A program made the position numbers and the translations under genes. A DNA stretch of 55,751 nucleotides, the filler included, from Sluysia triapertura (Eukaryota), in NCBI GenBank assembly GCA_046118255.1. It is 4 parts of 4 records of this genome, joined end to end, with 100 filler letters (N's around TTAATTAATTAA, not from the genome) between each part and the next. Parts side by side here need not be neighbours in the genome. Positions count along the whole stretch, not along the records: positions 1 to 15,965 come from JBJNIA010213920.1; 3 more parts are not named here. The stretch is one strand, 5' to 3'. This document shows positions 1 through 52,734 of this stretch, one piece after another (the stretch's first letter is position 1; the number at the start of each line of letters is the position of its first letter). Below the pieces are notes generated by a model, which was not told the DNA's origin, made no database searches, and was given only the letters and a program-made list of their open reading frames with translations.

Positions 1-660
1 TTCATTATTTCACAACATCAGAATTACAATTACACCTTCAAAATAATTGAAAACATCTCAAATTCATAGTCTAACCAGATAGGAGTCACATCACTTTCAG
101 AATTAACAGTTTATAATTAAAAACTTTATAAAAACATTTTATTCACAACACATAACCATAGAAGCACAACATAAGCCTTAAAATAAACCTAAAACTCTAC
201 AGGTTCACAATTCTTTAATACTCATTTATTCTAAGAACTTCAAATATGTTAAGAACTAGCATTACTGTGCACAAAGATTATGTTCATTGTATTTTAGGTT
301 TATGTAGAATAAATTTTCAATAATAATGTCATTATTATTATTATCACAATTTTATTTATGTATTATTTTTATTAGCCATCTTTATTAATTTATTAGTTTT
401 GTAACTACCACTATTAATTCATATGTACAGTTTATTGTCACTATTGATAGTAGTTGTGTTTTCAACATATTCAAAATCTTAGTATTACTCAACCTGTCAT
501 CAGTCTACAGGCATTTAAAATTAATTAGTGTTGCTTTACTAACTGTCGACTAATGATAGTTCATTGCATTTATTATCTATTTATTTATTATTTATTTATT
601 TCGCTGACTGCCTAATCAAAATTATGAATATCGTTTGCTTTTTGTGTTTTGATTGGGCAG
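1..660 (+). mobile_element. Cassette A: leader and regulatory module (5' end outside window)
   Basis: G-poor 1-260. TATGTAGAATAAA at 301 (also 2491 in B). GTTGTGTTTTCA shared with B. GTCATCAGT 496-504. Inverted CCAAT-type pair 608-621/647-660. Confidence 0.6.
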
Positions 661-864
661 CCACTCATATATGCAGAAGATTCATCATGAAAAGTAAAAA
701 ATTATTTAGTAGATTATTGTTATTTAAAAAACAGTTTCTTATTTTCAATTTATCGATTTTACAAGAGTGATTTTAAAAGCTAAAAAATATATAGTAGATT
801 ATTGTTACTTTACGAAACAGTTACCTATTGTCAATTTTTGATTTTCCATTATTATTTACTTTAG

Positions 865-1713
865 CGATATTGAATGGAAATTAATAGTAAAGAAGACGTG
901 GAGCTTAGATTGACAGGATTAATAAATGTTAGAGATCCTTTTTCAAAAATAAGATTTCAATGTATGTCAAATAGTGAATCACACGGTACAATAACCCCAA
1001 GAATTAATGATAAAGAAAACTTTGAAATAACTACTCTACGATTTGATGTTGTAAAATAGATGCCGAAAGACGTGATTTAACTATTAATTCTTTACTTTTA
1101 GATGAAGATGGTTTTGTTTATGATTACTTTGGCGGCATTAAAGATTTAGAAAATAGTATCCGTTTTATTGGAAACAGTGTTAATGGAATTAAAGATTATT
1201 TAAGAATTTTACGATATTTTCAATTTTTTGGAAAAGTTTCGGAACAATCCGATTCACACGTTGAAGGAATTTTATCTGATATTAAACAAAATGTCGATGG
1301 CCTAAAAATGTTAGTGGTGAACTTATTTGAGCAGAATTGAGTAAAATTATTAAAGGTAGACATGCATGTGATATATTGAAGCGAATGTTTGAAAAAACGA
1401 TTTTATGAGTTTTATGAAAACTTGAAGAAAAATGATGCTCAAAGTTTGGTTTTTAGGATTAATTATTGATAATGAAAACGAATTAGAAGTTCAATAAAGT
1501 GATTCGAATGTGAAATTAAAAAATTTACAAGATGACTTCATTATCTGGAAAAATGAAAAACCAATTCAACTGAATCAATTCCAAATGTGCCAATTTGAAT
1601 TGTTGAAATTATTAGGAAGACCGGAAATAATCGAAGAAATTATAAATTGGAAACTTCCAAAATTTCCAGTCAGTGGCAGTATACTCATTGAAGAATGGTC
1701 TTTAAAAGAGAAC
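865..1713 (+). pseudogene. TRNT1: CCA-adding enzyme (tRNA nucleotidyltransferase) pseudogene, with frameshifts and internal deletions
   Basis: Colinear motifs across frames: ELRLTG, HGTITPRIND.ENFEITTLRFDVV, DAERRDLTINS, DYFGGIKDLENSIRFIG, DYLRILRYFQFFGK, WKLPKFPVSG. The segment between TTLRxD and DAERRD is deleted. The 3' end is cut by the TGTAGTGG terminus at 1714. Confidence 0.9.
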
Positions 1714-2680
1714 TGTAGTGGCCAACACTCATAATTTAAACTCATTCAAAATACCAAATTTAATATCCATAAATCAAATTTCTCTAAAGTTTAATTTTCA
1801 CAATAATCATACTTTTACTTTCGAATTACACCAACACAAACGTCATAAAATAACACTCGATATTTTCAACACTTCATCAACTCACATATATCAACAATTC
1901 AACTAACATTTCAACCATCCATAGCACAACAAACTTCGACATGTAATCTCGAATAATTCACAATATTCATTCATAAGATATTTCAATAAACAAATCACAA
2001 TCATAATATAAACTTCACAAATCATAAATATAATAGCATTATCAAACAACCCCAACAAATACTTCACAAACATATATCATTTCCATCTAAAACCTTAATC
2101 CGCAACACCGACCTAAACTCTTTTCATTTACTCATATGCATCATTCACAATTACTCGCAACAACATTATAATATATTAAAGTTTATTTTGCAATCATCAC
2201 TCAAAATTAAAATAACTTCAACCTTTCAATAAGCATTCTAAACCACTATATCTAATGCATAAATCTTGTTTTCAAATTATAAACCTTCAATAAGCTTCAA
2301 TAAATCATTCTAACACCCTTTATTTCATTTACAATCTAAACCACAACATCTTTCAAAAACAAGTTTAAGATAACTTTAAAAATTTCGTTATCATACTGTG
2401 AAGCAACAGCAACGGATGATGCATTATAAACTCAGTTGTTGTTGTTCCTTCACAGTACAACATTTGTCTTATTTCTTTTTATCTCATATATATGTAGAAT
2501 AAAATAATTTGACAGAAAGTTCATGTTTAAGCCTTTTTCAAAGAATTTATGTGTTAATTTTATTAATAACAATAATGATAGCGATGTTATTGTTGTTGTT
2601 ATTATTGTTATTATTATCATTTTTATTATTATTATTATCATTATTGCTATTAATTTTAAATCATTTTTATTAAATTAGTT

Positions 2681-2850
2681 ACCACCGTCATCAGTACTAC
2701 TTGTGCTGATTTAAAACTGTCATCAAAATGACACCACTGATGACGGTGGTTGTGTTTTCAGCAACATTGTACAATTTTTAATTTTAATTAATACAACACC
2801 CAATCAGAGCCATCACTGTTTATTTTATTAATTACAAAACTGATTGGGTG
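2681..2850 (+). promoter_or_regulatory. Twin inverted-repeat module: 15-bp perfect hairpin plus inverted CCAAT pair
   Basis: ACCACCGTCATCAGT 2681-2695 / ACTGATGACGGTGGT 2736-2750; CACCCAATCAG 2797-2807 / CTGATTGGGTG 2840-2850; about 140 nt upstream of ATG 2991. Confidence 0.65.
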
Positions 2851-2990
2851 GATTAAAATTAGTAACTACAAAAAATCTTATGCTATACTCAATTTTTAAA
2901 AAAACGTTATCAGTATCAATAGAGTAAAATTTTCCAGACAAAATATTGAGGATTCCATTTTATATTTTTTTCAAGACTGATGTGAGATCA

Positions 2991-3797
2991 ATGTTATATT
3001 TAACAAATATCTTAACTGGCAATGTATTTTATCCTAACAAATATACGATGATGATCGATTTAGAACAAAAGGATAAAGAGTTTCATTCATTATTATTAAT
3101 CATTCCACGATCAAACAGCTTTAAAGTCTATGATTTGGATTTATTAACGGAGTTATCTGAAGAATTAAACAATTTAATTTTATTTTTTAGTAACAACTAC
3201 AAGATAGATGATTTACATACGTTTGTGTTGCGACTAATTTTCAAGATTAATACGAATTGGTGGAATATGTTTAAATTAATATATGAAATTTTAAAATCCC
3301 TCATATCAAGAAAGTGGGCCCGCCTTCTAAATTCATCATGCTTTGATAATCACAATTATGGCAAATATGTTACGATTCCATTTTGTGTTAGTCATGAAAA
3401 TAGTCTTATAATTTTTAGAATACATGTTATTAATCGTTTTTTAGTTTTAGAATATCATCAAGAATTAAATGTTTTTAGTTTAATGCGACATGGTCAATAT
3501 TTAGACATAACACTAAAATTAAGTTTGATTGATCCGACAACAAAACAAATGTCATACCGATATGAATTAGTGAAACTACGAATGAGAACCGTCCGAATCA
3601 CAGTTTTAACACCAGAGAATAGACTATCAAAAAATCATATCTTAATTTTTTATACAACGATGAATATGCCGACAAGTCTTAGTAAATTAGTTGAAATTAA
3701 ACATAAAGACCTCTACGTTAAAGTGTTCAATCAGAATATAGAGAGACGTTTATTTAAACTATTTTTTGTGACCGGTACTACCGAATACTCAACTTAG
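2991..3797 (+). CDS. Orphan ORF of cassette B (about 268 aa from ATG 2991); further decayed coding-like sequence continues to ~6660
   Basis: Long open frame in very AT-rich DNA where chance ORFs are short. Intron-like acceptors follow at ~3851 and ~6235. No domain recognised. Confidence 0.5.
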   Translation: MLYLTNILTGNVFYPNKYTMMIDLEQKDKEFHSLLLIIPRSNSFKVYDLDLLTELSEELNNLILFFSNNYKIDDLHTFVLRLIFKINTNWWNMFKLIYEILKSLISRKWARLLNSSCFDNHNYGKYVTIPFCVSHENSLIIFRIHVINRFLVLEYHQELNVFSLMRHGQYLDITLKLSLIDPTTKQMSYRYELVKLRMRTVRITVLTPENRLSKNHILIFYTTMNMPTSLSKLVEIKHKDLYVKVFNQNIERRLFKLFFVTGTTEYST

Positions 3798-6700
3798 TTA
3801 GAGTTAGTAACATTTTAATTGAAATAATTTGTTTATTTGATTATTTTGTAGATAACCAAAGCTTCGATTGGATCATGAAATGGTGGAGAGCCAAATATAA
3901 GTCTCAATATAATGACAATTTATCTTTTTCGAAATTACGTTAACTTTTTATTAATTAATAAAACCTTAATTTTTATTAAGACACCATTTATGTTAAAAGA
4001 AATAATGAGGTAGTAAAAAGCGATTTTAAACATAAGTTTACAATATACTATTATTTAAAAATTTTCGGAAATTATTATAAAAGTTATAAAAAAATTGAAG
4101 ACTGTGAATGTGAAGATATTTTCTTATATTATGTTAAGCTTTAGAATAAAAAATTTTCAGACAAATTCTGCATACTTGTTCATAATCTTTGAAATATCCT
4201 CTGGTATAAAACTCTTCAAAAAATTTAATAATGCACCCTCAAATTCGGCTTATATTTTAAAATTAACTACTCATTTTACAAATTCGATTTTAAAACTCAT
4301 CATAAAACATCGTTCTTCACAAACAAAAATCATAACGCTCAAAAAATGTTATCTTTCTAAACATCACTCGGCTCAATCCAAACTTATAACCACTATAAAG
4401 ATTACGATGATTTATAAGATTTAAACCAGTACTTTCATCTCTAACAAATAGAATTTTCGAACACCTTCTCTTAGATGAATTTTCAAAAAGATATTAAGAT
4501 AGAAAGAATAATCTTTAGGAAACTGACAGAAAATAAACAAGTTAGATAAAACGTTATTTGATTAGATTTTTACAGTTTAGTGAACGAGAAGCTCAGAGTA
4601 ATTTATGAAGTTAGAGCTTGCAATAATAACAAAGTTTGTTGAAAATTTCATAACGAATACATTTCAAGAATCAAGGTCTAAAACCGACTAGGAATTACAC
4701 GTGAGATTAAATCAAACATAACCTACCACTAAAGTTTTTTATTTTACAAAAACGCAAGTTGAAAAACTTATCAAGAAAAAAATTTGAAGGTTCCCAATTT
4801 TAATATTACGAACAAAAAATAAATATCAAGACGAATTGAAGTCGAAAATTGACTAGAATTAAGACATGAGACTAAGTAAAACATAACATAACATTTTTTA
4901 ATAATCGTATTTCACTGGTATTTTACAGATTGTACCTTTTTATTTACTACTTTTATTTCCATTTTGTTTTTATTAAAAAGAATGACTGAATTTTGTATTT
5001 CATTGTCACACATTCATTATGTGTCTCTTTTTTATGCAAATTGAATTTATTTATTTACTTGTTTATTATTCATTTGTATTTACTATTTATTGTTATAGTT
5101 ATTAGTATTATTGTAATTATAATATATAATAAAGTAATAAAAATATAATGAACAAGTTATGGTTTTTCGTTTAAAAACGTATCCATTTGTTGATAGCATT
5201 AAAACTTAATTCAGTATTGCTTATAATTCAATGAATAATAATTAAACATTAATATTAATTAATGATCACTTGTCGGACATAAGGTTTAATTATGATTGAA
5301 TAAAACCCAATAGTAACTCTAATAACGAAATAACGGATATTGAAATTAATAGCAATTTACCATTATATTATTTTGATAATATTTCAATAGTAAATGAATT
5401 TCAAATCATTGATCCAATTCAAGTAAATACTAAAAACAATCAACATCATTTATTATTTTACCTTTATCATAATCACCAAAATCATTAACAGAAGATGAGC
5501 TTTTGCATTATAAAAAAACTTAATAATTTTTACACTTATGAATTAATAAATTCTTTTGAATCAGATATTTTATTTACTAAATATTTATAAAATTGCAAAA
5601 AGTCGTTTTACAGATTGAAATTAAGAACTTTTTGACTATTTTTCCCAGGAAATAATATTAATGAAATAGCTAGATGTTAGTAAAAAGACCAAACATGGAA
5701 TGAAATATTTCAAAGTTTTATTAATGTTCTAAGAAGATTAGAATCAACAGGATCTGAATATAAATCAGTTGTATTAATTTTTGTTAAATTATACATCAAA
5801 CCATTAATTAAATGATATTATCAAAGGCCAAACAACAAAACAATGACAAAGAATCGTTCCAGAACATAGTTAGATTTGCTGTTTTTAATATAACATTAAA
5901 AACAAATATTGTCAACTATGCTATTTGAATTCTCTTTACGGAGGGCTTACGTTTAAGAACTGTTACCCCTAAACGATGAAAGGTTAGATAAAGTGGTGTG
6001 TATAGTTCATGATTCGACAACCAAACTAAGCTATACTTAGGATCATTCGTTAATACTTATTTAAGTAGAAAATCAAAAAATATAGAACCCTATATATTAT
6101 ACAATGAAAACAAAAAACGAGTGCAGACGTTAATGTACATAAACGTGCTTGATAACTGTTTTATAATGCACAAAAGAATATAAAATAATAAATAAATTAA
6201 AATTAAGGTTGCAATTAATTGATTATTTATTTTAGAAAGATTTTGAGCCTGGAGTTATTCTAGGCTTTTAAATATTAAACATTTTACGTCAATATTGACC
6301 CCGATATTAGAGTAGGAAATTTCCTATTACATATGAACTTATGATTTCATGGAAGACTCACTTATCAGATAAAAATTAATGTTGACGAATGTCCGAAAAA
6401 TAATGTATTCAAATTATCTTGCTGTAATCACTGGATATGATTACCAAAAATAATCACCGAGTATGACACTAATACCAATTATCGAATTGAATACAATTAA
6501 TAGGCAAATAATCGACGAGCAAACTATTTTCTCGTGCGAAACTCTTGCTGAATTGTCTTGTGTCTCCCGTGTAAGCTGTTATAGAAATTAACTTTAATAT
6601 TATCAATATTTCTCCAAAAGTAAAATGTTATTTTTTCTAAAGACGCCTCTAATTTAATAACTTNNNNNNNNNNNNNNNNNNNNNNNNNNNNNNNNNNNNN

Positions 6701-7209
6701 NNNNNNNNNNNNNNNNNNNNNNNNNNNNNNNNNNNNNNNNNNNNNNNNNNNNNNNNNNNNNNNNNNNNNNNNNNNNNNNNNNNNNNNNNNNNNNNNNNNN
6801 NNNNNNNNNNNNNNNNNNNNNNNNNNNNNNNNNNNNNNNNNNNNNNNNNNNNNNNNNNNNNNNNNNNNNNNNNNNNNNNNNNNNNNCTATCTTTGAAAAA
6901 TAATCAATATTTACAAATTTATTTACTATTATTTATATTATAACATTCACATTAATGTTGCTTGTTCTTTGTTTGGTATTGGGTCAGTTAAATGGTTTTG
7001 CTAGGCCATAAGCCGGCTTTAAATTAAACAATAATATTGTTTAATTAAAAAAATAAATAGTAAGACAACAAAATTAAAAATAAGAAATAACTGGAGAGGC
7101 CCTAATTCCCATACACCTTTATGTATTATGTTCAATCTCTCAAATCGTGTTAAATTATTTTTTATTTTATGAAAATGAACATTCCAAAAGACATTTACTT
7201 TAATATCCA

Positions 7210-7660
7210 TTTAACAATTATACGAAATTGCGGACTTCATGAAAAATTTAAATCTGATTAAGTTTTAAATAAAAATTTATTAATCATAATAATCAACATC
7301 ACAATCCGCACATTTACCCAACATTTCAATAGTTTATTTATTCCAATTTAAAAAAGTGACATCTTTCGACACTTTTCAATATCACTTTGATTCGTACCAT
7401 TTATCTATCAGATCACTGTAACATGTGAAAAAGTGATACTCTACAAGAAATAGATCACGTGAATGTGATGAATGAAGTAGAATTGTGTCCTATTTTAATA
7501 AACTGTTTAACGGTCATTTTTGTAATAAGATGCTGACTCAGAGTGATTACTCCTGGTTGTTTTTGATCAATTTTAATTTCACTAATAAAATTTTCAGCTC
7601 TAATGGCTTCATCATGAAACTGTAATGAATTATTCCATTTATAGCCTACAAAAAATTTGG
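7210..7660 (-). mobile_element. Decayed mariner-type transposase fragment
   Basis: Minus-strand translation KQPGVI..HLITKMTVKQFIKIG, ILLHSSHSRDLFLVEYHFF and GINKLLKCW.KCADCDVDYYD* resembles mariner PHPPYSPDLAPSDYHLF and GIHKLPERWQKCI..GDYFD. Confidence 0.6.
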
Positions 7661-7984
7661 CACATATTCATCTAAGTGCTTTCGTCAAGAAGTCGATGTT
7701 ATAAGAAATGCTATATTGAGTAATTTTCATAAAATTCTGTTATAGTTATATTTGGTACCGTGAAAATGTTAGTTAAATTATTAGTTAAATATTAGTAAGC
7801 CCAGAATGTATTATTCTGAATATATTATATGCACATTTAATAATTCCATCTTAATTTTGTACAAAGTTGTGTTAATTTTTTTTATTATATTGTAGCTACT
7901 GTAACACTGAAATTTCAAAATGTGGATGTGCATCTACTTGTACAATAATCGAAAATTATTACTTAAATTTTAAAATTTAAATAT

Positions 7985-8637
7985 TAGAATCACAAAACCA
8001 TTAAATTTCGTAGCGAAAGATATAAATTAACCAAGTAATAATCGTGAAAAATCAAAAACCTGGATTGAAAAATAATCCAAAATATTGCAGTATTTCGCGC
8101 AATAGTTTCAGAATTTGAGTTCAATGATAAACAATTTCCTTGAGCAGTCCACAATACTAAATATTAAATATTTCGTAATTATTAATAATTTCATCACTTG
8201 AAGCTGCAATTCCCAATAAACAAGAACTACAATATAAAAGAATAGTTATTGGCTTAATAAATGACAACATGTATAAACTGAATTAAATTCATTACAATCA
8301 TTAAAATAATTATTTTACCCATAAATAACTGCAGAAATAAACATTGCAAATTTTGCAGTTAACCAAATCACAAAAATTGGAGCAATCCAATTTGAAAATG
8401 CAAAAGAAATGTAGATAATTGATAAACTCAAGTAACCATCACCGGTAAATGTATAATTTGAAGTTATTTTTTCAGAATTTAAAACTGAAGACTAATATAT
8501 GAAGCGTTTAGTTTAAATTTATAGAAAAATATTACCACAAACATAGATGAAGTTTGAAACGAACCAAAAATAAACAAAAACCCAACTCCGAGAATAATAA
8601 CATTTATCAACTCTAAATTTCGCTGATAGAATGACAT
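7985..8637 (-). CDS. MFSD11: UNC93-like MFS transporter (MFSD11-like), 5' exons with short introns; possibly truncated
   Basis: ATG 8637. NVIILGVGFLFIFGSFQT | GDGYLSLSIIYISFAFSNWIAP | LLYCSSCLLGIAA | LWTAQGNCLSLNS..TIARNTAIFWIIFQS. GT-AG introns, e.g. 8535-8485. Apparent +1 frameshift at LLG-NLY near 8025. Confidence 0.85.
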
Positions 8638-9072
8638 GATAAAATCAATACATATAATATAAATATATTTTAATAGCAATTAAAGAATTAATATAATATT
8701 ATAATTTTATTAGGGATATCATTTTTCTAATAACATTTTTTGTCAACAGTATTTATAAGTGGAATATACTATTAATTTTATTTAAATAATATCTATATAT
8801 AAAAATATTTTTATTTTGATACTATTTAAATAATTTGGAAGACTATCTAAAATATATTCAAACATTAAAACAATTTAACTGGTTTAAATAATTTTACAAT
8901 GAATGTGTGCAATAAATTTATAGTTTGCTAGTGTTTTTCATTTAAATTCATTTTACTATTTCATTTCTTATAAATTAACTAAATTAATAGTACAAGCATT
9001 TATAAGAGGAAGTGATCATTTTGTAATTATATTAGTAACGGCTTGTATTCAATTTAAATATTATTATTGAAT

Positions 9073-9762
9073 ATGGATGACAATTTTCATGCTATTTCAA
9101 TTGAATCCTTATTTCATGACAAAGATCCATTATCACACAGTAGTAGAACAACTTTAGAAAGTAAACTTTGACTTTTTAATTATGCAATTATTAATCAAGA
9201 TTTATCACAGCATGGATCATTGCAAACCATTAATAACATATTAGATGAGGAATATTTAGATAAAATTCAATTAGAAATATGTCATAGATTTGAAATGAGA
9301 AAACGATCTTTCGCTGTTATTAATATATTATCATTAACCAATAATAATCAGCGTATATTTAATGCGAGAGGGTATTTTATATAAACGACGAAAATATAAT
9401 TTTATTTATAGATATATTAGATTGATGCTTTATCCAATTAAAGACGAAAAAGAAAAGGTAAATCGAACTATTATTTTTAAAAATAGTCAAAATATTGAAA
9501 TCAATGAATCATTTAGAGTAATTTTATATAGGAATTTAATTTATTGTATTGTTTTAAGTTCTATCTCGAATCAGACGAATGCGATTTTCGAACCGTATTA
9601 ATACAATTAATGGCATTAACAAAGGGTTCGAATAAAGTCATTATTGGTGAATATCATTTACGAATTAATAGAGAAACATATGCAATTAATTATGAAGTTA
9701 TTAAATTTGAATTGAAAAAGGTTATTCTTATTCATGAAAGTTTTAAATTATCAATTCATTAA
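9073..9762 (+). CDS. Probable C2-domain (synaptotagmin-like) protein, multi-exon
   Basis: ATG 9073; 39-nt intron 9161-9199. YIRLMLYP, then INESF / FKFYLESDECDFRTVLIQLM..KVIIGEYHLRI fits the C2 beta-strand pattern. Exon boundaries only partly resolved. Confidence 0.55.
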
Positions 9763-11535
9763 TGTGTTAAAAATAGTTTAAATATAATCTGAAATTATAA
9801 TCCAAAATATTTTTACACAATATATCCAATTTCATTATTGTTATGTTGTGGTTATACTCATACCTTATTAACAAGAGTAATGTGACTTTTCTATGCGATT
9901 TTTTATAGGATAATATTGTAATTGATTTAATAAAATGTCAAATTATTAAACGAAATAAATCACTAATTTTAATATTTTTGTCACCAACATATACAGGTGA
10001 TGGATTTGTTAATCTGCTATCATAAATAAATTAAATTAAATTACTGAGTTCAGCTGTGATCCATGCCTTACACACTCAAGGGTTTGTCTACAGGATTTAA
10101 GCAAAAAAATTTTAACGAAATGTTATGGAAACCAATTTGTAAGGTGAATGTATATGCTAAAATTTGATGCTAGTTCAAGAATGATTTAAATTATTGTGAG
10201 AATTTGTAATATAAGAAAACTTTTGGCTTGTTTATTTATGTATTATTTATGAGTCCTCTATGACATCGGGCTTACACACAAAGGGCTTATGTGTATCAGC
10301 CTTAATAGTAAATTGGAAAGAACTGAATGTTAAAGAAAATGCCATTGCACAGCTAAGTTTAGCGAGATTAATTTTTGAAAATATAAATTCGATCTAAAAA
10401 GATTTTTGATTAACAAATTTTATATTTAGTATAAATGATTACGAATTTATTATTGACGTGAAACTTTTAACAAATTTTGAAATTACCTAATTTGATTACT
10501 ATTCAATAAGAAAGTTAGTGTAGATCTAAAGATAATCTAAATGTTAATAATTTTCGACAAACTTATGCAATTAAATGTAGTTATTAAATATTATAAATGC
10601 AATATTAAAATTTAAATCTGTTCATATATTTACGATCATAAAATTTTCAAAATTAGATAATACAATGCTAAAAAATGTCACAATTTAAAAAATTAATTAT
10701 ATCAAATAAAAATTAAATATAGTTACTGCTTATTATATAATTGATAATAATTTACATTTATAGACAATATAAAAAAGAGAATATGTAAAGACAAAATGTA
10801 ATTGTTAATAAAATACTTAATAGCCATAATTTATTCATCAATATTATTTCTTAAATAATATTATCTGGAAGAACTTTTCTAATTTAATTTAATTCTCTAA
10901 TAAGCTTTACAAAAATTTAATTAAGAGTTTAGAGTGGTGTTTATATTTTACTTAAATTTACTTAAATAAAACTTATATAGACTAACGATTAAATACAAAG
11001 TTCTTGTTTTTCAAAATATAATTATTTCAAGTATTGAATATCAGCAAGTGATTCGAAATAGTAATTGATTAAAATCATTTCGTAAAACAAATAATTCACA
11101 ACAGTAATGTAACTGATCGAAATTGAATATTAATTTGTAAAAATGATGATCAATAATTAAACTTTTCACTTTAAATGACGCTACACTTTTGATTCAAAAT
11201 TTAAACTTTTAAAAGTTTAACTAATAATGTCTCAAAAATTAATACTTCAATGATTATTTCTACAAATAGTCATTACGCTATTTATATAGACAAATTCATA
11301 GTAAGGTCACTCGCTTGTGAGAAGTGAATCATAAAGTTTAATTGTACTTTTCTATTTGTAATATTTTTGCATAATTAAATTATTTATATTTTTACAAAAT
11401 TAAAATATAAATTAAACTATAAGATTACGTTAAGAAGAAGTACGTTTTTTGTGAATAACTTTTGAATGCGGAATGTTATGTTAAATTTGAAACTGTGTAT
11501 ATATTTGTTTTAAGAAGACCTTTCGATGAAGGTAT

Positions 11536-11654
11536 TGTTAGACTTCATAAATGGATCGAACCCGGACCTCTAGCTGCGCAGTTCGATGCTCTAACAATTT
11601 TATTTTATTATGGTCAATTTTACCAAATGGCACTTTAGGCCTTTTATCCCAACA
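11536..11654 (-). mobile_element. tRNA-containing TGTT...AACA element, copy 1 (internally deleted), GTAT target duplication
   Basis: GTAT at 11532-11535 and 11655-11658; B box GGGTTCGATCC; aligns along its length with 45819-45974. Confidence 0.8.
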
Positions 11655-12234
11655 GTATGGTTTGACCGAATTCATGCAAGAAAAGACTTAATATTGAGCA
11701 AAGTCAAATTTTAATTAATTTTTAATTATGGAATGTTGGGCGTGAAAAATCGAAAATTAATTAAATTCTAAAATGTAAAATTAAATTCATTATTTTTATT
11801 TATGTTAACAATATTGTTGATTGTTATTTTAATGTGAGAAGTAATTTAAGTAAAAATAGATTGAGTAGATAAAAGAAAATGACAGTTGATAATAAAACAA
11901 ATTTCTATGTTTTGTACCTAATAAAGTTTGACAGATCGTATCATGTAATTGTCAAAGTTGTTATTGTCTGTTTGATTTTCAAAGAGGTTTGGATGATATG
12001 TGTGAGAGAGTGTTTGGTTGTGAGATTTGGGATTGATTGGATGATGAAAGCGTATAAAATAAAAACTTTAAAAATTTTACAACACAGTAATAATAATCAC
12101 ACATTCTCACAATCCCACCGGCATTGAAGGTCCATGTATATGGTAATATTTTTATTGATTAATACTTTAATTATTTTATTATTTTAAATAAAATAAAATT
12201 AATAAGTTGTTTTTGGGAAGTATCTCAAGAATAG

Positions 12235-12505
12235 TTTTGTGGGGGACACCAAACCCAATTTATTTTATTTTGAATTAATCATTTTATTTTTAGCAGTTTG
12301 GAGCCAAACTTCTGGGAGACACTCAGCCCAATTTATGTTTTAAAATATCTTCAATTAATTATTTGATTTTTAGCGATTTTAAGTTAGCTTCGTGGGAGAC
12401 AGTCTGCCCAATTCATTTTAAAAATATTTTAAGTTAATAATTTGATTTTTAGCTAATTATAATATAATTTTGTGGGGGACATTGTCCAATTTATTTTTAA
12501 AATAT
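12235..12505. repeat. Diverged tandem repeat, unit ~77-80 bp, about 3.5 copies
   Basis: Recurrent TGGG(G/A)GACA...CCAATT...GATTTTTAGC at ~12240, 12313, 12394, 12474. Confidence 0.8.
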
Positions 12506-12807
12506 TTAACCATAATTACTGTTTTAAACTTTCTGGATATTGATATTGTTTTAGTGTTTGTTGCGTCACTCCTGGTTTCTTCATAGAGACTGTCATATCC
12601 GTGATACTATTAATGTTAATCCTGTAGTTTTAGTCATTTTAATAAAGTGTTGTTTAATAAAGTCTTATAGCAGTAATTTTTATTTGGTTTTTTTGGTAAT
12701 CATTAAATTATTGAATTGTTGTTTATTTTATTTTAAAAACTTAATCTTTGGGTTGAATAAATAACATCATCTAAGTAAGAAAATTTGTGATAATTTCATT
12801 AATATAT

Positions 12808-14311
12808 TTAATGATTGATTATTGAGGTTTTGATAAATAAATTAACCGATATTAATTTGTTTGGTTGAGTCGTGTTAAAATAAAAATAAATTGAATTTAA
12901 ATTTATAAAATTATTTTTCAATAGATCTGGGTATATTTGTGAATAATTTATGAAACTTAGTCTTTCTTGAAAAAAACTTTTTTTAGAATTTAAGATAAGT
13001 TTCATGCAGTTTTCACTGATACTATCAATCTTATGTTCACTAGAAGTAAAACATTTAAGAACACGACATAACTTATTTATAAGCAAATTATAGAAATTAA
13101 TAAATAACTTATAACAAAAATTTTATTGAACATAAAGATGAAAACTAATAATTTTGTTACTGTATCTTCGTGTAGGTCAATCCACTTCACTTCGAAAGGA
13201 TCATCTAAAGAAGAATGAATATATAATTTATAAAATAATTCAAAAGGAGAAAAATTTACGTTTTTAGATTTTCTGTTATGATCATTGCATTCATTATTTT
13301 TGTTCACAAAATAGTTTTCTTGTAACTTTCGTAATTGTAGGGATGAACGCGTCACGTTAACAATAATCTTATATTCTCTCATTATATCGTCTGATTTATT
13401 GCAATAATTCTGAATATGCTGATGATCTAATTCTGACAAAATTTCAAGATCACTGGTTATTTTGAACGATTCGATACATATTTTAAGGCAGAAAGTATGA
13501 GTAGGTACTGATGATCCGCATACTACGTGTGAAACTATTGTTACTGGAATTACTTTCACATAATCAAAACAATGCAATTTTAAAATTTGACTACTGAAAC
13601 GGGGAGTTCATAGCTACAATATTCATTCGTACTTTTAAATAGTTTAATACTCCTTAACTTTCGTACTAATTAACTTAATTCGAGCACGACAATGTGATTC
13701 ATGATTATAAGATCATTTTAAAACATCAGCATATGGATGCAAAGTTAACTGAATAAATAACAAAAATTGATCATTGTCCTTAACTGAAATACCTTGGGTA
13801 AACTTTTTAAACAAATTACACAGTAATTTCCTAATACAACTAAATAGGTATGATTTCCAATTGATAATACTAAATCGATTACGGTAACTGGAACTTACAA
13901 GACATTGATGTAGAGAAACAGGTTCCATAAATTTATGAAGTTCTAGATTCTTAATTAATGTTGACCGAAATCTATTATCAACAATTATGATGAAATTTAA
14001 TTTCAATCTTTCTAATTCATAAAGTTTGTAATAGAAAACAGCATCACAATAGACTTATAACAATCAGGTGGATCAACTGGATCATTATTTGAATACATAA
14101 ACGAATATACTCCCGATATATAGATTATATTAAGATCAACATATTTGTAAGCTTTACAGCCTCCTCGATAATTGGGCATAAACGAGAACGTTTTATATTT
14201 ATTAATTGTAATAAATGAAGACAAATCGTTATTCATTTTAACTGAGTAGACAGTTTTAATAGTATATAAAATTGATATGTAGATACTAAAAATATTAAAG
14301 ATTAAAAACAT
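12808..14311 (-). pseudogene. Chain of four co-oriented orphan ORFs, probably one broken or spliced gene with a hydrophobic N-terminus
   Basis: ORFs 14311-14012, 14006-13713, 13577-13077 and 13086-12808 lie close together on one strand. No domain recognised. Confidence 0.4.
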
Positions 14312-18199: not shown

Positions 18200-20124
18200 T
18201 TTTATTTAATTTATTCAATAAGAATAAAAATATGATCGAGTAAGATTCAGTAGTAATAGACACAGAAAATTAAATGTAAGAAATTTGTCAACATCTGCAA
18301 GAAGTTGATACACCATAAGATAAAACTGGTATTGTTTAAAATTATTAAGAAATTGTTTTCTTATATAGAAATGCTTTAAATAACTTTTGCTTCTTGTATT
18401 TATCACTATGACATAAATATTAAAAAGCACTAAAAAATATGTCAGCCTTTATAATATTTGTGAATTAAAGAAAGAACATTATTTTATTTTTCAAATACTT
18501 TATAAGTTCCCAATCATTTGTTACTTTCACAGTAATCCAATATTTTAATATTCTTCGATAGTTGCTATTTAAGTTTATAACTCATCATACATTTGATTAT
18601 ACTTAAGTTATTATTAAAATGGGAAATATAAAATGTTTTGCTTTGCTATAAATTTAAATGAAGATCTTTTGCGTTTATGATGAATCAAAGGTTTATATCA
18701 GAACATTTCTCTGGAGTTTTTACTAAGAAATGAAATATTGAAAAGGTCTTGTTTGTTTTTTATGTCGCATAATATTTTTGATAAAGATATTTATTGTTAA
18801 AATAGTATTTAGAAGACATCCTTGTTATAAATCAGGATTACATTTAATAATTTGAAAACTTAAATTTATATTAACACGTTGATATTCCTCACAGATGAGA
18901 CTCTTTTATCACTGTATTTATTTCTATTTCTATCACTATGATCATGTTCAATTTTAAACTTAAAAATTAAACACAAACTTAAACTAAAAATAATTTTACT
19001 ACTGTTTACTGTATTACACTTTATATTCACAGTATGTTTATTAGCCTTTAAGAAAATAAAACAAAAACACTAAATTTTATCTAATCTAAAGTTATTACAA
19101 TTATTTAGAATAATTAAATGATTATAATAATTAGCGATGTTACGAAACCCGGAAAATAATTATTTGATTAAAATGACAACATATTATTTCCAATTGATAT
19201 CACTACACTTATTACTAAAATACTTAATTAAAAAAATTTTGTGTGTGTGCCAATAGCATACAAGCCAATGAAATATGAATTGTAGCAAATTGATATTGAT
19301 TGGCAAAACATAAGTTAAACATAGCGAACACAATTTTTGTTTTAAATAGAGACCTATGCTTGTTATAGATTTCTTTCTTTATAAATTAAACTTTGTTTTC
19401 TTTGAAGAATAGAAATGAAGTTCTTTGATGAATTGTGTAAAATGTTGTAAAGTTTAACAAAGAATGTCAAAAGATATTTTAAATACTTTACTAAAGTATG
19501 ATTTCGAAGTGATTATAGAGATATATTATGATTTAAATGAACGGTACAGGTTGTAGAAAAAGACTAATTATAAAGATTTAAAATTGAATAATAGGGGCAT
19601 TATGATGAATAGTTTTGAATACAAATGATCCAATGAATGATGATGTGTAGGATTTAAAACACGAAATTCTTTATTGAAGGTTTAAGATAGTTTGTCATTA
19701 GAAAAATGAATATTTCTGTAGTACAGAAAAGCTTTCAAATCTTCGCTAATATTTATTATTTTAAGGCTACTGAGTGTATTATATAATTTTTGATCCATTT
19801 AAGGCATGCGTAAATTACCATGATACAGTAGGAGAAAAACAAGGGTGAAAAATATGTTTAATAAGATTGTTAATAAATGTTGAAATAATTTAATGAAAGA
19901 TATTATGAATAAAATGTTTTGATGATTACTATAAAATGTTGAAGTATTTAACAATGTTGTTGAAAGAATGTGAAAACATAATATTTGAAGATTTAGTAAT
20001 TTTAAAAAGAAGGTGAATTTTCTCACCTGGTTTGTAATTTTCAATGATTGCATTAAAAATTTTATTGCGCGATTTGTGACATATATATTGGTGAAACTCG
20101 TGTGTTGTGAGTTGAGCCACTACA
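18200..20124 (-). mobile_element. Cassette E (weaker member): TGTAGTGGCTCAAC terminus, skewed leader, CCAAT cluster, decayed cargo
   Basis: GTTGAGCCACTACA 20111-20124; C-poor plus strand ~19360-20110; GCCAAT 19249 and 19264, GATTGGC 19298. Left boundary approximate. Confidence 0.45.
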
Positions 20125-32870: not shown

Positions 32871-32937
<67 letters not shown>

Positions 32938-33236: not shown

Positions 33237-33259
33237 CTAAAATAATGAATAATAGAGAT

Positions 33260-37509: not shown

Positions 37510-37580
37510 CACATTATGAGTGGGTATTTAGAATAACAGTTCATAAAACGGGTAATAATACCCGCCCCGCTCATAGTGTG
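37510..37580. mobile_element. 71-bp piggyBac-type mini element
   Basis: TTAA at 37506-37509 and 37581-37584; 15-bp TIR CACATTATGAGTGGG / CCCGCTCATAGTGTG (13/15). Confidence 0.8.
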
Positions 37581-39412
37581 TTAACAAATTACATCAACTA
37601 ATTCTCAAAATATTATCCGATATTCACAATAGTTCAAAAACAAACTCATTCAAAATAATCCATTTAATACTTCGAACTCCTTATTACAGTCTTGCCCTAC
37701 GGTTACTGCTTACTAAATAGAACCAGAAAAAATTATAAAAATATAATTTGTATGCTTCAGTTTTTTCTTTATTTACAGCTATTTATTAAGATAGTTTAAG
37801 AAACTTATGTCTTTTGGTAATAAAAGAATTAGTTGGTTGTATTGTATTAGTTTTAACATGACCATTTAACTTATAAAAATATTTTAGTTGTCATCTACTT
37901 TTTTTGCGATTTTGTGAGGCAGGAAGTTAGGCTCCAATTTCTTCAAACTATTTTTTTTACTTTCAGTTAGAACTGGTGGAATAATAGCAACACTATCATT
38001 TTTCTCTAATACTTTAAGACTGCTAATATGTCTATAAAAAGGTGATGCTGCATTTATGTATATAACAGAAAACGTGTGCAGTTTTAGGAATTTTTGTTTC
38101 TAATAAATATTACATTCATTAATCGTAGTTCTGCACATAAGGTGGGTGGAAAAGGCGATAAAGATGAATGAATTAAAAATAAAGACAATTCGAACAAATG
38201 GTAAAGCATATGATTTACTAAGATGTATTAGCTAAACATAAAATTTAATAAGGATATAGATATTAATGAGATACTTAAAAATAAATTAGAATACATTGTT
38301 TTATAAAAATTTAATTTTTTTCAGCTAAAAAATACAAAAAAATGGATATGGGAGAACAAACAAGTATTCGAATGATTTGACGATCTTATGCATAAATGAT
38401 AAAATGAGTTTGATGTCTAATAATTAAAATTCATGAACATGGACATCAAGATTAGCCACAAGTGAAGAAAAAGGAATAGCATCAGGATATAATTTCGGAG
38501 AATAATATTTAATATTAAAATTAATTTATGTTAAATTTTAATTTTGCATTATAATTAATAATTTGCACAATATTATTACTAGGAGTAGTCTTATTTAACT
38601 TATAGTTAACCTTATGATTACAACTTATAACTAGCTTAGAAGTGGTATTTTTAATTGGTACTTTTAGGTCGTGCGCTTGTCTAAAATTCATATGTATTAT
38701 ATACTTCAATCTTACGCAATATCCATATTTGAACAAACACGAGCCCATTATTTGGTAAGTTGTACAATTGATTATTTGAGTTCCGGGCTATAAACCCATA
38801 TGAATGCCACCACATAAGTCAAATAACAATTATAGTATTATTTATTAGAGGATTTTCTACATGAACAATATCTCCGGTAAATGGATAAATTATCAGTAGA
38901 AATTCAATAGCCGTAGAGAATTCGTAGAAAAAAGATTTTGTAATAAATGGTGATTCTGTACTTAGACAACTTTTGAGTCATGCTTTAGTTCATATTCGAA
39001 TTACCTTGTCAAATTAATTTAAAGTAACTGATAATCGAAAAGATTATTGTAAATGCTATCCAATAAAGATATATTTACTAATGTATGATTCATTGCGACA
39101 GCAATTTGTTATACAATATTGCACTGTCAGATTAGCTTTATGTTTTCGTACAATTGACTAGCTCGATATATTTTTAATAATCACAAAATAGATACAGATT
39201 ATTACTTATTCTTTAAAGATAATATACTCTTAATAATCATAGTTGTAAATCAATGTCTTTACACAATACAAATATAATATTTAAAATTTATTGGTGACAA
39301 AACACGTCATACGTTAATACCTATATTTAACAAAATAAATATAACAAAAAGCATTGCTTAACTAACCACAACAATAATAATAAATATAGAATTAAATATA
39401 GCGTTATGAAAG

Positions 39413-41141: not shown

Positions 41142-43353
41142 TCACATTAGACTGGTTAGAAACAAATTTGCCTTTTTATAATCATTAATTTTATAATCGT
41201 TAATTTCGTAATCATTAATTTTATAAACATTAAGTTCGTAATCGACTGTTTTATAATCGTTAGGTTCGCAATCAACATCTTTAATCACTTCATTGAGAGT
41301 AAAAAATATAAACAAATCATTCCTATTTTGAATGCATAATTTAAAACTTCTAATAGTTGTATTACCTTTAAAAGACAAGTCTATATTGGGTGGAGTATGG
41401 ATTTCCAGAGTGATACTCTTTATTGTTGCATAACAGTTAAATTTATTTAATGAATAAAGAATGAGATTAAATAAACGCATTATTAATAACATTCACTATT
41501 CATTTAGAATAACATTGTATATTCTAAACTATAATTAAACTCGTCATTAACAACACCATTCTGATCATCGTTCTCAGATCATTGATTCTGCATACGTTGT
41601 ACCTTTTCTGATTACATCAGTTACATGTAACTAATTTCTTGGAAGGCTTTCAAGCTTACTATGGTTGTTATGTCAAGACACCCAGTTATGGAGGTAAACT
41701 CTTCACACCAATTTGGGTGGTGGATGATATTATGATGGTGTGATAATGATTTTAAAAGTTTATGTTTTTGAATTGAATAAATTTTTAAATGGTTGATTTT
41801 ACGTAGTTTATAACGATTGATGGTTTTATAATTTTTTAGCACCAAATGATTCCTTAAATAATTTGGACCTCTGAAGAAATAAGCGTGTTTGGTATTAATT
41901 AAGAAATTTCTAGTTAGGTTAGAATTTTCAGGTCTTAATACGACATTTATACTAAGGATAGCCTTGATAGTATATGACAGAAAGATCTGGTTAAAATTGT
42001 GATTAGCTACGGTTGACTTTAGTAAGATACGTATCGTACCTATTAACGTTTTTGTATACGTAGGTTTGAGTTTAGGGTTATCACTACAACCATCGTAAGA
42101 TATTGACTGATGTGGACATTTCAATTCTTTATAATGTTTTTTATCATGAGACAATATTCTGACACTTTGAATTAAAAAATTAGAATTATGTAATTTAAAT
42201 TCAAAGACAAATATAAAGAATTTAATCAAGAAAATTTTATTGAATATGATAATACAATTATTTTTGATGCTAATATCTTCCATTATTTGATTTTCGTATT
42301 TAACCACATTTTGTTGCTCTCCACCATTCGAGTTTCTATAATTGTAATCTAAAATATAGAATAATAGTTATATAAAATTAAGTCTTACATTCGCTATGTT
42401 ACCGTAAATGTAATAGTAAATAGACTTGCATAATTTCGTTATATTTAAAGTTAATTTCATACCTTCAATTACTGACAGAGGTGTAGATAATAGCTTGCTC
42501 GGCAGGAATAACTTGATTTTGTCAACTCGTGATTTATTAGAGTATTTTGCGATGACAATTTCCATCAACAGTAACGACTCACTCGATTCCTAACTAACTT
42601 TTTTCAACTGATTCTTATAAAATTGTGACGAATGCGCCAAACTTTTCTGTGATAATAAACGAATTAGACTATTTGATTTTTCATCGTCATATGTAACAGA
42701 TTGGTAGGTTGATAATCTATTTTCTTTTAGGTCACGTTGGATTATTGATTCACCAATAAAATTTCCTCTAACAAATAATGGCTTAAGAATTATCATATAA
42801 ACGCTTTTTGATATATACAATTGTTTTAAAGTATTTTTCCAACAATATAATTTGCTACATAAAACGAGAATAATTCACAACATGTTGCTGAATATCGCTC
42901 ATTTTTGTACCAAATTTCATTTGAAAAGGAATAATCGAAATGAATTTTAACATCTTTTACGATTATATTATTTAGAAAATATACTTTAGACATAGCAGTT
43001 AAACGGGTAATTTTTGGACGGCTCTAGCTATTAGTTGAATCAGTATCATCTTTTTGACTTGATCTATCAGTTTTACTATTTTTATTGTGACTTATTGCTG
43101 GTATTTTAACGCGACATTGAGTTTCATCATCACTTATCCAAAATACTTCACTGCAAAAATTATCTTCACATGGAACGTGTAAATCTTCATCGCAACTATT
43201 CTGGCTCTGTAGTATACATTTGACATTATCCAGATTGTGTTTGGTAACATTAGAAAAGGTAGCAGTTATCATGTAGCCATCTGAAGTTTGTTCGGCTTTT
43301 TGCTTTAGGTCATGACAATTTTCATCAAGCTTATTCAATTTTGGTAACATCAT
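41142..43353 (-). pseudogene. Cassette C cargo: five co-oriented orphan ORFs, probably one spliced or decayed gene
   Basis: ORF chain on one strand; GTAAGA...TTTTAG short intron ~42388-42349; 15-nt repeat (DYKIN) near the 3' end. Confidence 0.5.
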
Positions 43354-43471
43354 TATATAAAATCAGTTTACATAAAGTTCACAGTTTGTTGAAATAGTTG
43401 CATAAAATTTTTTTGTTACTTTGTAATAAAAATTGTGATATTTTTAGTTTTTACATTTCTCTTGTTTAGCT

Positions 43472-43634
43472 CACCCAATCAGAGTCTTAGCAAGAACAAT
43501 TAATAGTATGAACTCTGATTGGGTGGTGTACAAAAACTATTAACGTGAAATGAAGATCGATACAACTGATGACTGACCACCATCAGTGTTGGCACTTAAA
43601 TGAAAAATGTAACGTATAGTGTCAACACTGGTAG
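43472..43634 (-). promoter_or_regulatory. Cassette C twin inverted-repeat module
   Basis: CACCCAATCAGAGT 43472-43485 / ACTCTGATTGGGTG 43512-43525 (14/14); ACTGATGAC 43565; CAGTGTTGGCACT 43584-43596 / AGTGTCAACACTG 43618-43630. Confidence 0.65.
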
Positions 43635-43705
43635 CAACCAGGTTGATCATCGTTTAATTAAAATTTTATCATTTTAATGAATTGATAATAATAATAATAA
43701 TAATA

Positions 43706-48399: not shown

Positions 48400-51300
48400 T
48401 AAATATTTAAATTTTAAATAAAAACAAGTGTAAAACCTTTAAAAAATTTCCAATAACAAATTGTACATAAAATAAACATTTACTTTACAATTACCACGAT
48501 CACAAGAGACCTAAAAACCAATATAAACCAATTTTATAAATAATCGATGTTAAGCAATTACTTATGTGAGCTGTATTTAAAAAAGACCATTATTAAACCA
48601 TGAGTAATAATTAAATCGATCAAAATAAAAAGCAACATCATGCGAAAAATCAAATCTGTTTTTAGGTTACACATTAAGAAGACAAAACATCTTTTGCAGA
48701 TACAATGATTCTTTAGGTGCTAAGTAAGTAGATATGTCCATGCTAATAAACCAATGCATTTTGCATTTTTTGTTATTAATATATTGAGGTTATGAACTCA
48801 ATAAGAATTTAGGACAGTACAAATATTATAATAACACAAATGAAGGACCATAGGAATATTTTAATATACAAACTTGGTATATAATAGTATACGTAAACTG
48901 CAATAACCATAGAATCTTCGCAATCGTAACCATGGATATGTAATTTATAATACTATGCATCGCATTCATATATAAATTTTATAAGTATGGTTTGTTGTCA
49001 CTTGTTCTAGTAACGTTCTTTTTTCTGAATAGCTGAACATTAAAATCGACTTTAACTAGTTAAAATAAAGAAACCCTAAGACATGTCTCCGAGCAAAATA
49101 ACCGATGTTCAATCTATTAATACCAAATCCAAACTTAATATAATACTCTAACAAAAATTTATGCCAAAATCTAAACTACTAGTAAACCATATATTCGAGA
49201 TAAATCACTAGTAAACCAATAAAAAGGAACCTATCCAGGCGAAAGATAGATACTTTATTAATTTTATAAAGAAGAGTTTTATAATAATTAAATGAGCTTG
49301 AAATCATTTCTCTTGATGTTATCTGAGACATTTTAACAAATCTTAAATAAATTATAAAATAATTAAAAGTCCAAAAACTAAAATGTATACATTTATTAAT
49401 TGACTTTAAAATTAAAATTTTAACTTTTCTTGAAGGTATTCTATACATCACTTTGAACCTCATCTTAACTTTAGTTTTTGAAATAAAAAGAACATTTAGA
49501 AAACTATAAACATAAGCAATTAAAATATTTACATTATCAAATTTTACCAATGAATTTGTCCTAGTAATACAAGAATAAATACTTGAAATTTGTTGTCTCG
49601 GATATTTTTAACATACTGTAATAGGATGGCAGAGATGTTTTTTGATAGATCGGATATGGTCTGTAGTTACTTCCACAACCAATCTTGACAAGAATTGATG
49701 GCTGTTTTTGTTGTAATCTACTGTATGTTGTTGATCGAAGTTTGGTACCATCACAATATTCCGATAATAATTATGTTTTAAAAATTTCATTTCATTAAAA
49801 TAACAATAATATAATCTTTTACAAAAAGAATAATAATAGCAATGATCTATTTCTTTACAAAAATCATAATAACCGGTTATTACGTTGAAAGATGAATCCG
49901 CATACATAAGCATAAAGAAATTAGGATAGACATTTGAATGTTTAAAATAACTTAATCGAAATATGGCATTTATAGAAGTATCAGGTTTAACTAAATCGAA
50001 TAATAAAATTTTGGTATTAAATGCTGTTACGAGTAGAAATATTATACGAGCTATAAAATTATCTAATGATTTTGATAAAACTTTAAAAACTCCTTTTGAA
50101 TTTTTAATTATATCTAATTTAATACTTTGTTTAGCAAGTACCAACTTTACGTAAACTAGGTAACGCATAGAACATCTTTTAGTAATATACAGCTTCTGTT
50201 CTGAGGATTATACAAAAGAATTCTACTTTCTTGGAAATGAATTTGATAGTTTTTTGTTTTAAAGAATCTTTTGTTTCACAATAGTCATACCTACTTGGGA
50301 TATACTTATTTAATTCATCATATACCTCCACACACAAATCTAACGATTTCAACGAAATCAAACAAAAGTCATTTTTACTAAATAAGACATTAATTTTCTC
50401 ATCACTTGTAGAACTACAATCAAACAACCGATTTGATAAAATAGTCTCTTTGGTTTGCGGTTTAATTATATATACATAAATACATGGTTTAACTCTTCTT
50501 TAACTTTCATACTTAAAATTTACCTTTTGCCATTTCTTTTTATCAAAATATTCAACATCATATATTTGCATTATTACCAAAATAAAATCGAGTAATTAAA
50601 GTGATTAACGAAATTTTTTAACTACTATTATTTTTAGGTTGTACTATTTTCACATTTCTATCAGGGCTTCCAATTATCCAATTAAACAAATTCAACCTGA
50701 TTGGATGACAGGCAGAAAATACAAAAATGATAATTACTGATGATAGTATAAAATTGAATTCTTTGAAACTGTACACGATCTTCCTTTAATTCTTACAGAT
50801 TTTTAACATATTGAAATAAATTAAAAATGTATTTGGGACTAAAGTTTTTAAGAATTGTTTTGAAAGAATTGATAAGTATAATTAACCTTTGATATGAGTA
50901 ATGAGATGAAATAGAGAATATTAGAATGAGTTGTGGATAAAAGGCTTGTTGAGAAGATTGTAATTTGATGAACAACAATATAACTCTTAGTATATAATGT
51001 TATATAATGGTATTATTGTATAAGGTTTTGTGTGATTTGTTTGTTTGATGTTTTTATGGTGTTGTATTGTGTTGTTGATGGTTATGTATAGACGAATAGT
51101 GAATTTAAGATATAATTAATTCGAAGATGTGAAGTAGGTATTTTACATGTTTCAAGTAGATTTGCTGGTGTTATCTAATGGTATTATAAGTTTGTCACTA
51201 TGATTTAGTTAAAGTGTAGTGTAAAATGAAGGATTCGAAAGTATTGAGTGGATTATCTGAAATGTATTTGTTGTTGGATTATTGTGAATGTCGAGTAACA

Positions 51301-51494
51301 TGTTTTTGGTGGATTAGTTAGTGTAAATTGGTAATGTTGGGTGTAATTGTGATTTGTATGTTGTGGAATTGTGGGTGTGAATTGATTTTAAAAGGTATGT
51401 AAGAGATGAATGTATGAGTGTTAAAGTGTGATGAAAAGAAGAAAAATATTAGTTTTTAATAAAATTTTAGTGGTTGTAAAAGTTGGCCACTACA
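48400..51494 (-). mobile_element. Cassette D: TGTAGTGGCCAAC terminus, skewed leader, CCAAT module, orphan cargo; distal boundary uncertain
   Basis: GTTGGCCACTACA 51482-51494; C-poor plus strand ~50900-51480; ACTGATGAT 50736; ATCAGG 50660 / CCTGATTGG 50696. Confidence 0.6.
49179..50571 (-). pseudogene. Cassette D cargo: orphan ORF chain
   Basis: ATG ~50571 (MQIYDVEYFDKKKMAK) followed by a GTAAAT donor, then ORFs of 82, 186 and 123 aa separated by stops or frameshifts. Confidence 0.45.
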
Positions 51495-52625: not shown

Positions 52626-52674
52626 GTTTGTTTATGCTATTATTATTATCATTATTAATATCATCATCATCATC

Positions 52675-52734
<60 letters not shown>

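Follow-up and report, generated by a model that had tools for sequence, protein, structure and literature searches.

A dispersed repeat family in Sluysia triapertura that resembles a gene-capturing, non-autonomous LTR element

Introduction

In retroposition mediated by long terminal repeats (LTRs), as outlined in the cited portion of PMC5131818, host sequence is taken up as partial copies, open reading frames (ORFs) of the element are replaced, and secondary rounds of copying occur. The same portion counts few animal loci with such capture of host mRNA: 15 in Drosophila, 3 in human and 8 in mouse. Animal Gypsy LTRs, in the sections of PMC3601003 cited here, have CA-rich U3 stretches and short TGT..ACA inverted repeats. 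Here we describe a repeat family whose front end is fixed while its cargo varies, and whose copies we call A to E, in a stretch of 55,751 nucleotides of Sluysia triapertura DNA (assembly GCA_046118255.1; hereafter the window).

An initial annotation of the window had proposed an undescribed family of cargo-carrying cassettes. A dispersed, non-autonomous repeat with variable cargo is indeed present, but it fits LTR-mediated retroposition, as the cited text of PMC5131818 describes it, better than an undescribed class. The feature is genuine, and it behaves as a non-autonomous LTR element that captures genes would. A tRNA-type primer-binding site (PBS) was looked for and not found, and paired ends were not seen, so membership among LTR elements is probable rather than certain. 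The capture process is known, and what differs here is the presence of several copies in one short stretch.

Results

A repeat family with a fixed front end

The window is animal DNA made of four scaffold pieces (joints N44-TTAATTAATTAA-N44) with one genuine assembly gap (223 N, 6664-6886). The family parts are as follows.

1..680, plus strand: front end of copy A, with a partial G-poor tract, a decayed hairpin 2, GTCATCAGT at 496 and hairpin 3 at about 606-664; hairpin 1 is apparently deleted
1714..1726, plus strand: 5' terminus of copy B, TGTAGTGGCCAAC, which cuts the TRNT1 copy of A
1714..2414, plus strand: G-poor, CA-rich tract of B, a putative LTR of ~700 bp with an inferred 3' boundary, recognised by skew, alignment with D and contig depth
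3798..6663, plus strand: internal remainder of B, broken frames with no family match, stopping at the assembly gap
41142..43705, minus strand: copy C, with (ATT)n, hairpins 2 and 3, then ORFs with no assignment; its tract is lost at the scaffold end
49182..51494, minus strand: copy D, with terminus, G-poor tract to ~50790, CCAAT pair, then frames with no assignment
19240..20124, minus strand: copy E, with terminus, weaker G-poor tract and CCAAT pair; its link to the family is weak
37579..37687, plus strand: fragment H, a D-type tract with 75% identity to D over 107 nt (nhmmer E=9.4e-6)

The terminus TGTAGTGGC(T)CAAC has three matches in the window, at 1714(+), 20124(-) and 51494(-), and none in 100 shuffles. 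A G-poor tract begins at each of the three. Over the 600 nt behind the terminus, (C-G)/(C+G) is 0.75 in B, 0.77 in D and 0.44 in E; values of at least 0.40 occur at 310 of 20,885 sampled positions. The G-depleted stretch that the initial annotation had placed there thus exists, as do the GTCATCAGT motif, at 496(+), 2687(+), 2744(-) and 43573(-), and inverted CCAAT pairs. The form seen in B and C, CCCAATCAGAG..CTGATTGGGTG, occurs at two loci (three matches, C being counted on both strands) versus none in 100 shuffles.

Outside the short motifs the copies had been thought not to align, which does not hold for B with D or for B with C. The tracts of B and D are reciprocal best matches (score 196 versus 123-124 for the next, among 496 real 800-nt pieces), and so are the leaders of B and C (84-102 versus 54-57; the C hairpin region scores 102 against B, the next 54 among 510 pieces). 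With nhmmer, C is linked to B (E=1.2e-9), but no link appears between the B and D tracts. A layout common to all four pieces had also been proposed. That layout is real, and B, C and D are homologous beyond the motifs; A and E do not rise above the real-window background in linear alignment, and E has no clear cargo ORF. E is tied to the family only by its 13-nt terminus, skew and CCAAT pair; the sole ties of A are motifs and a single strong hairpin. Taken together, the evidence supports a family of dispersed, non-autonomous repeats that have TGT termini and the same front end but differ in cargo. B is nested inside A.

Chance co-occurrence of low-complexity sequence, or an assembly artefact, is a very improbable explanation. 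It draws on the base composition (GC ~24% across the window), on the fact that real AT-rich pieces outscore shuffles, on the background-level alignments of E and A, and on the contigs listed, none of which documents a span of 1713/1714. Against it stand the absence of the terminus and the B/C hairpin patterns from all 100 shuffles, the reciprocal best matches of B with D and with C among ~500 real pieces, and a set of 100 block shuffles in which no stop-free run reaches 199 aa (maximum 165). This explanation is largely refuted where B, C and D are concerned.

One further element resembles the family ends. At 28862-29052 lies a 191-bp element with TGTAGTGG..CCACTACA ends, an imperfect inverted repeat of ~26 bp and no target duplication, either a solo LTR or a miniature inverted-repeat transposable element (MITE) that has the family's first 8 nt in common. 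A 57-bp relative of it lies at 15824-15880. Literature searches on TGTAGTGG showed nothing relevant among the 25 papers listed of 1,607, and motif scans of viral and metagenome contigs gave no matches.

The G-poor tract as a putative LTR

Contig depth comes from X1, one public run that contains the stretch. Its contigs were mapped on 1-15965 at 80% likeness (34,789 placed of 6,252,256 read). X1 is possibly the source sample and so is not independent support. Summed X1 depth over the B tract (1600-2665) reaches 49k and 46k, versus ~2k at 2666-3731, 114-922 at 3732-6396, 35-149 at 6397-9594 and 0.9-1.8k over A, with long single contigs at 12-14; summed contig depth is not copy number, and low complexity may raise these values. 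At individual tract positions, 32-73 distinct contigs depart from B, which means that there are many relatives.

All three visible termini start with TGTAGTGGC, the TG(T) start expected of an LTR. The G-poor composition stops around 2408, ~115 nt past an AATAAA at 2299. At least 16 X1 contigs continue past 2408 with the 6-nt inverse of TGTAGT (6 of 3,992 loose ends are listed). Because of this inverse terminus, what had been called a G-poor leader is probably an LTR followed by three stem-loops. The more likely reading, then, is that the B tract (~1714-2414) would be an LTR of ~700 bp and the hairpins a structured 5' leader.

2394..2457, plus strand: hairpin 1, z=-4.43, spanning the putative LTR end, its loop where a PBS would sit
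2681..2751, plus strand: hairpin 2, z=-4.41, with GTCATCAGT arms, behind the (ATT)n tract
2797..2850, plus strand: hairpin 3, the inverted CCAAT pair, z=-3.30

Hairpin 3 is strong in C (z=-4.91) and A (z=-4.33) as well, and five of the ten leader regions folded have z between -3.3 and -4.9. When hairpin 3 is compared across five copies, pairing holds in 90% of 50 cells, and both sides have changed in 4 of 11 pairs (5-13 of 500 shuffles are equally high); the comparison has only five sequences, with a structure borrowed from B and with D and E imperfectly aligned. The CCAAT core hardly varies between copies, and the flanks covary. Base-pairing is kept while flanking letters change, and the CCAAT pair therefore looks more like a stem than a bare promoter box. 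Hairpin 1, straddling the putative LTR end, resembles the U5-leader stem of retroviruses. A hammerhead ribozyme was considered for CTGATGA and rejected; Rfam gave only a tRNA-like SINE (short interspersed nuclear element) head, and inspection by eye showed no GAAA box.

Cargo of copies A and B

Cargo starts 26-213 nt past hairpin 3 and is different in every copy. Two cargoes can be identified.

874..1713, plus strand: cargo of A, TRNT1 (CCA-adding enzyme), intronless and frameshifted, with internal deletions that include DxD
2991..3797, plus strand: first cargo of B, an intact 268-aa ORF for the N-terminal portion of a myotubularin-related protein, diverged, intronless and lacking CX5R

The TRNT1 piece of A has 51-59% identity to many animals, and in a tree of 93 sequences it groups with protein P0067 (support 0.80). 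It contains frameshifts, stops and three internal deletions, one of which, of ~22 residues, takes out the DxD motif. Aligned with P0067 it shows deletions and no intron-sized insertion; neighbouring host genes have introns. Homology to P0067 reaches 1707, 6 nt before the TGT of B, so B cuts TRNT1 at its TGT, much as the initial annotation had it. The C-terminal tail of TRNT1 was not found in the window. That the TGT of B might instead belong to a 3' LTR of A is disfavoured, as TRNT1 homology runs up to 6 nt before it and the tracts of A and B are unlike. The purine run before this TGT lies in TRNT1-derived sequence. Tandem duplications occur inside cargo regions at 690-848 and 4656-4893 (75 nt, 83%; 76 nt, 72%).

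The 268-aa ORF of B has exactly one match (P0121, E=2.4e-10) among 1.84 billion proteins in a full HMMER scan. P0121 is a myotubularin (PF06602 at 7e-15; MTMR6 structure at 1e-13). The two proteins share 28% identity across 160 aa, in an alignment interrupted by one 3-aa gap (score 180, versus at most 64 in 500 shuffles), and the ORF covers the N-terminal part of myotubularin. The A1 profile match to MTMR6 is possibly driven by P0121 alone. CX5R, the catalytic motif of myotubularins, is absent from all forward frames of 2991-4500. The ORF matched nothing in a word-indexed protein search, Pfam, PDB sequences alone, or metagenome and viral contigs; its best ESM Atlas value was 0.80. AlphaFold models were poor (pLDDT 37 and 34) and the fold search was uninformative. 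A 282-nt X1 contig lies on this ORF with 30 differences, and summed X1 depth over the A and B cargoes is 0.9-2.2k versus 35-149 at 6397-9594, depth again not being copy number.

Both identified cargoes lack the catalytic motif. The cargo had been described as lineage-specific genes; these two are instead related to the host housekeeping genes TRNT1 and myotubularin and, judged from sequence, appear to be processed, damaged copies of host genes.

Cargo of copies C and D

The cargo of C comprises ORFs of 109, 220 and 116 aa from ATG, its longest frame being 248 aa from stop to stop; D has frames of 106, 199 and 142 aa from stop to stop. The 248-aa and 199-aa stop-free runs exceed 165 aa, the maximum of 100 block shuffles. 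Neither cargo has a credible match in Pfam, PHROGs or NCBIfam, or in PDB, nor an exact record. On the minus strand at 12811-14311, co-oriented frames of 99, 113, 176 and 104 aa with a summed depth of 271-1126 and no recognised terminus are possibly further cargo.

Enzymes of mobility

No gag, protease, reverse transcriptase (RT) or integrase was found in the cassette frames scanned (Pfam, PHROGs, NCBIfam; visible parts only). The initial annotation had seen no transposase, gag, RT or capsid motif. The cassettes hold no integrase motif, but a Gypsy-type integrase zinc-finger remnant lies elsewhere in the window, outside them (26659-26928, E=1.4e-4, below the Pfam cut-off). Around it, 26200-27400 (+) looks like a decayed Gypsy-type pol remnant.

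The copies might instead be the front ends of giant autonomous Gypsy elements, Burro-like or Ogre-like, with host-derived ORFs upstream of a gag-pol lost in breaks or by deletion. Burro has host-type domains and upstream accessory ORFs, according to the cited portion of PMC6431247, the myotubularin frame of B is intact despite 28% identity to its nearest relative, and B, D and E meet breaks before any recognised host exon. We regard this as unlikely: the cassette frames scanned hold no gag, protease, RT or integrase match, cargo is unlike in each copy, the TRNT1 of A is a plain decayed host copy, and C arrives at a host gene without gag-pol.

Far ends

B, D and E each reach a gap or scaffold end ahead of any recognised host exon. 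Near-identical 3' LTRs collapsed in the short-read assembly would explain these breaks. C differs from the other three in reaching a host exon, so it would have to be truncated. Two candidates for the far end of B were rejected. The post-gap sequence as a 3' LTR is equalled or beaten by 34 of 164 real pieces, and ACA+AGAAC near 8220 lies inside the host MFSD11/UNC-93 exon with no tract before it.

Another account is that of Pack-type DNA transposons (Ginger-like or IS481EU-like, with TGT..ACA ends), whose subterminal regions, long and asymmetric, would acquire host sequence. TGT ends are common to Ginger and IS481EU, the 191-bp element has inverted ends, and H(+) and C(-), on one scaffold, face each other. 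We give this account a low likelihood, since the flanks at the termini (GAAC, CCAA, ATTT) do not fit the Ginger targets (CCGG/CCGT for Ginger1, RTATAY for Ginger2), a search of the window gave no inverted partner for B, D or E, the cargo has no intron-sized insertions, and the pair of TGT and its inverse encloses the tract and not the cargo.

A new class of one-ended expression cassette is more doubtful still. Here the tract and hairpins would form a promoter/RNA module that repeatedly gains coding sequence of the host at one set position and spreads copies of enzymes, catalytically dead, as decoys. The four tract-bearing copies are all front ends, a far end was found in none, cargo begins 26-213 nt past hairpin 3, neither identified cargo keeps its catalytic motif, and the CCAAT core holds while its flanks covary. 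Collapse of near-identical 3' LTRs at breaks would, however, account for the missing end in three cases, a bias towards dead enzymes cannot be established from two cargoes, and partial capture is normal in LTR retroposition as the cited text of PMC5131818 presents it.

Other features of the window

The recognised host exons, from intron-bearing host genes, are these.

7990-8500, minus strand: MFSD11/UNC-93 host exon (Pfam)
23103-23343, plus strand: Frizzled CRD host exon (Pfam)
32828-33240, minus strand: macoilin host exon (Pfam)
52385-54692, plus strand: host exons of what we take to be a divergent UBR4

Relative to the nearest host exons, A/B, E and D are on the opposite strand, and C is on the same strand as macoilin. 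Other repeats are present. The minus strand at 14900-15500, with very high summed X1 depth, is presumably a decayed RT remnant of a long interspersed nuclear element (LINE), by eye from its motifs. A tRNA-derived SINE-like repeat occurs at 11554-11657, 27564-27638 and 45818-45977 (self-matches; Rfam tRNA match at 45836-45907), and 11194-12259 is the deepest stretch of 1-15965 in the X1 contig mapping. A TTAA-flanked 80-bp inverted-repeat element at 37507-37586, which from its features we take to be piggyBac-like, adjoins H. An inverted pair of ~236 nt with 78% identity lies at 39391-40024.

Discussion

On balance, we think that this is probably a non-autonomous Gypsy-type LTR family in which host mRNAs were captured by template switching and then copied in trans, that is, by LTR-mediated retroposition. 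The TGT terminus, the G-poor tract and leader in common, the many diverged relatives in X1, the processed-looking cargo and the integrase remnant in the window support this, and we infer mobilisation by an integrase. Captured pieces of host mRNA would replace the internal coding region of the element. The putative LTR would drive the RNA, and the stem-loops may act as priming and packaging signals, with Gag, RT and integrase supplied in trans by an autonomous Gypsy element. Near hairpin 3, in the course of reverse transcription, RT would jump to a host mRNA packaged alongside; the resulting chimera would integrate and be open to renewed copying. B would later have inserted into the older copy A. 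Most cargo would decay, while the myotubularin frame of B stayed open, possibly under selection.

Several observations weigh against an LTR family of this kind. The inverse terminus is decayed in B, and the corresponding positions of A and D do not show it. The CCAAT pair follows all four tract-bearing copies, and 3' or solo LTRs ending at 2414 would not show it; the LTR could therefore extend past hairpin 3. No TGG, the start of a tRNA-type PBS, occurs 600-950 nt into B, a result that hinges on the inferred LTR end. For B, C, D and E the window holds no second same-strand tract and no matching end with a duplicated target, and C continues for 8 kb, up to a host exon, without a second tract. 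The other five of the ten folded leader regions are not above shuffles. In the loop of hairpin 1, 2416-2424 is complementary to 2136-2144 (9 Watson-Crick pairs; 22 of 2000 shuffles do as well, as do 10 of 569 control starts), a post hoc match that hints only weakly at self-priming. The TRNT1 and myotubularin cargoes are partial and lack intron-sized insertions against proteins, and their loss of introns is putative.

If LTR-mediated retroposition is the right account, 4-5 cargo copies in 56 kb together with the many X1 relatives would give a dense natural test set for template-switch sites and cargo survival. That the myotubularin frame is intact, with a nearest relative only 28% identical, hints that cargo is under selection. 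Such ORFs would be prone to mis-annotation as orphan or duplicated host genes. The parts worth following are the copy density, the fixed point of capture and the myotubularin frame, which is open yet catalytically incomplete. A bolder version is tempting but improbable: a high-copy retroelement platform of this animal lineage, capturing mRNA at a fixed point behind the CCAAT stem, with some dead enzyme copies (myotubularin, CCA-adding enzyme) kept open as decoys or regulators, would be a systematic generator of gene families and not a chance event now and then, possibly self-priming or one-ended.

Comparison with known systems

Protein-primed polymerase, integrase and capsid genes are hallmarks of Maverick/Polinton elements, and none of the three was matched in the frames scanned. 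The literature searched holds no description of the family, most subscription journals and repeat databases lying outside its coverage, and no relevant work was found there joining myotubularin, LTR retrotransposon, retrocopy and flatworm.

Ginger1, Ginger2 and IS481EU resemble the family in their TGT..ACA ends (PMC2836005, PMC10045372, in the parts cited). The same parts give Ginger and IS481EU inverted repeats at both ends, of 40-270 bp in Ginger, and Ginger specific targets, neither of which was found for B, D and E. The self-priming elements Tf1 and Sushi, as described in the cited portions of PMC7175516 and PMC6317226, have no tRNA-type PBS, and their post-LTR sequence is complementary to a tract site. 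Here the corresponding match, unlike theirs, is 9-10 nt in one copy only, with weak statistics.

Burro of planarians, in the cited text of PMC6431247, is an LTR element of an animal genome that is AT-rich; it has host-type domains, and accessory ORFs lie upstream. In contrast to Burro, the frames scanned (visible parts) contain no Gag-Pol polyprotein and no MATH, BIR, BCL2 or ankyrin domain, and myotubularin and TRNT1 are not among the Burro domains that this text describes. [quoted passage not shown] The ta-TRIM of taeniid cestodes lacks gag-pol, has a presumed structured packaging region and is mobilised in trans, as the cited part of PMC4558846 states. That part gives ta-TRIM a non-coding interior of ~590 bp, a tRNA-Leu PBS, a polypurine tract (PPT) and target site duplications (TSDs) of 4-5 bp; the copies in the window have kilobases of cargo, and those signals were not found.

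LTR-mediated retrocopies and maize Bs1 are alike in holding partial intronless host sequence in an LTR frame in place of ORFs, with signs of recopying and several parents possible (PMC5131818, in the portion cited). A second LTR and junction microsimilarity are not among the features seen in the window; unlike those retrocopies, the family described here has 4-5 cargo copies within 56 kb, with cargo that starts at a similar place past a conserved stem.

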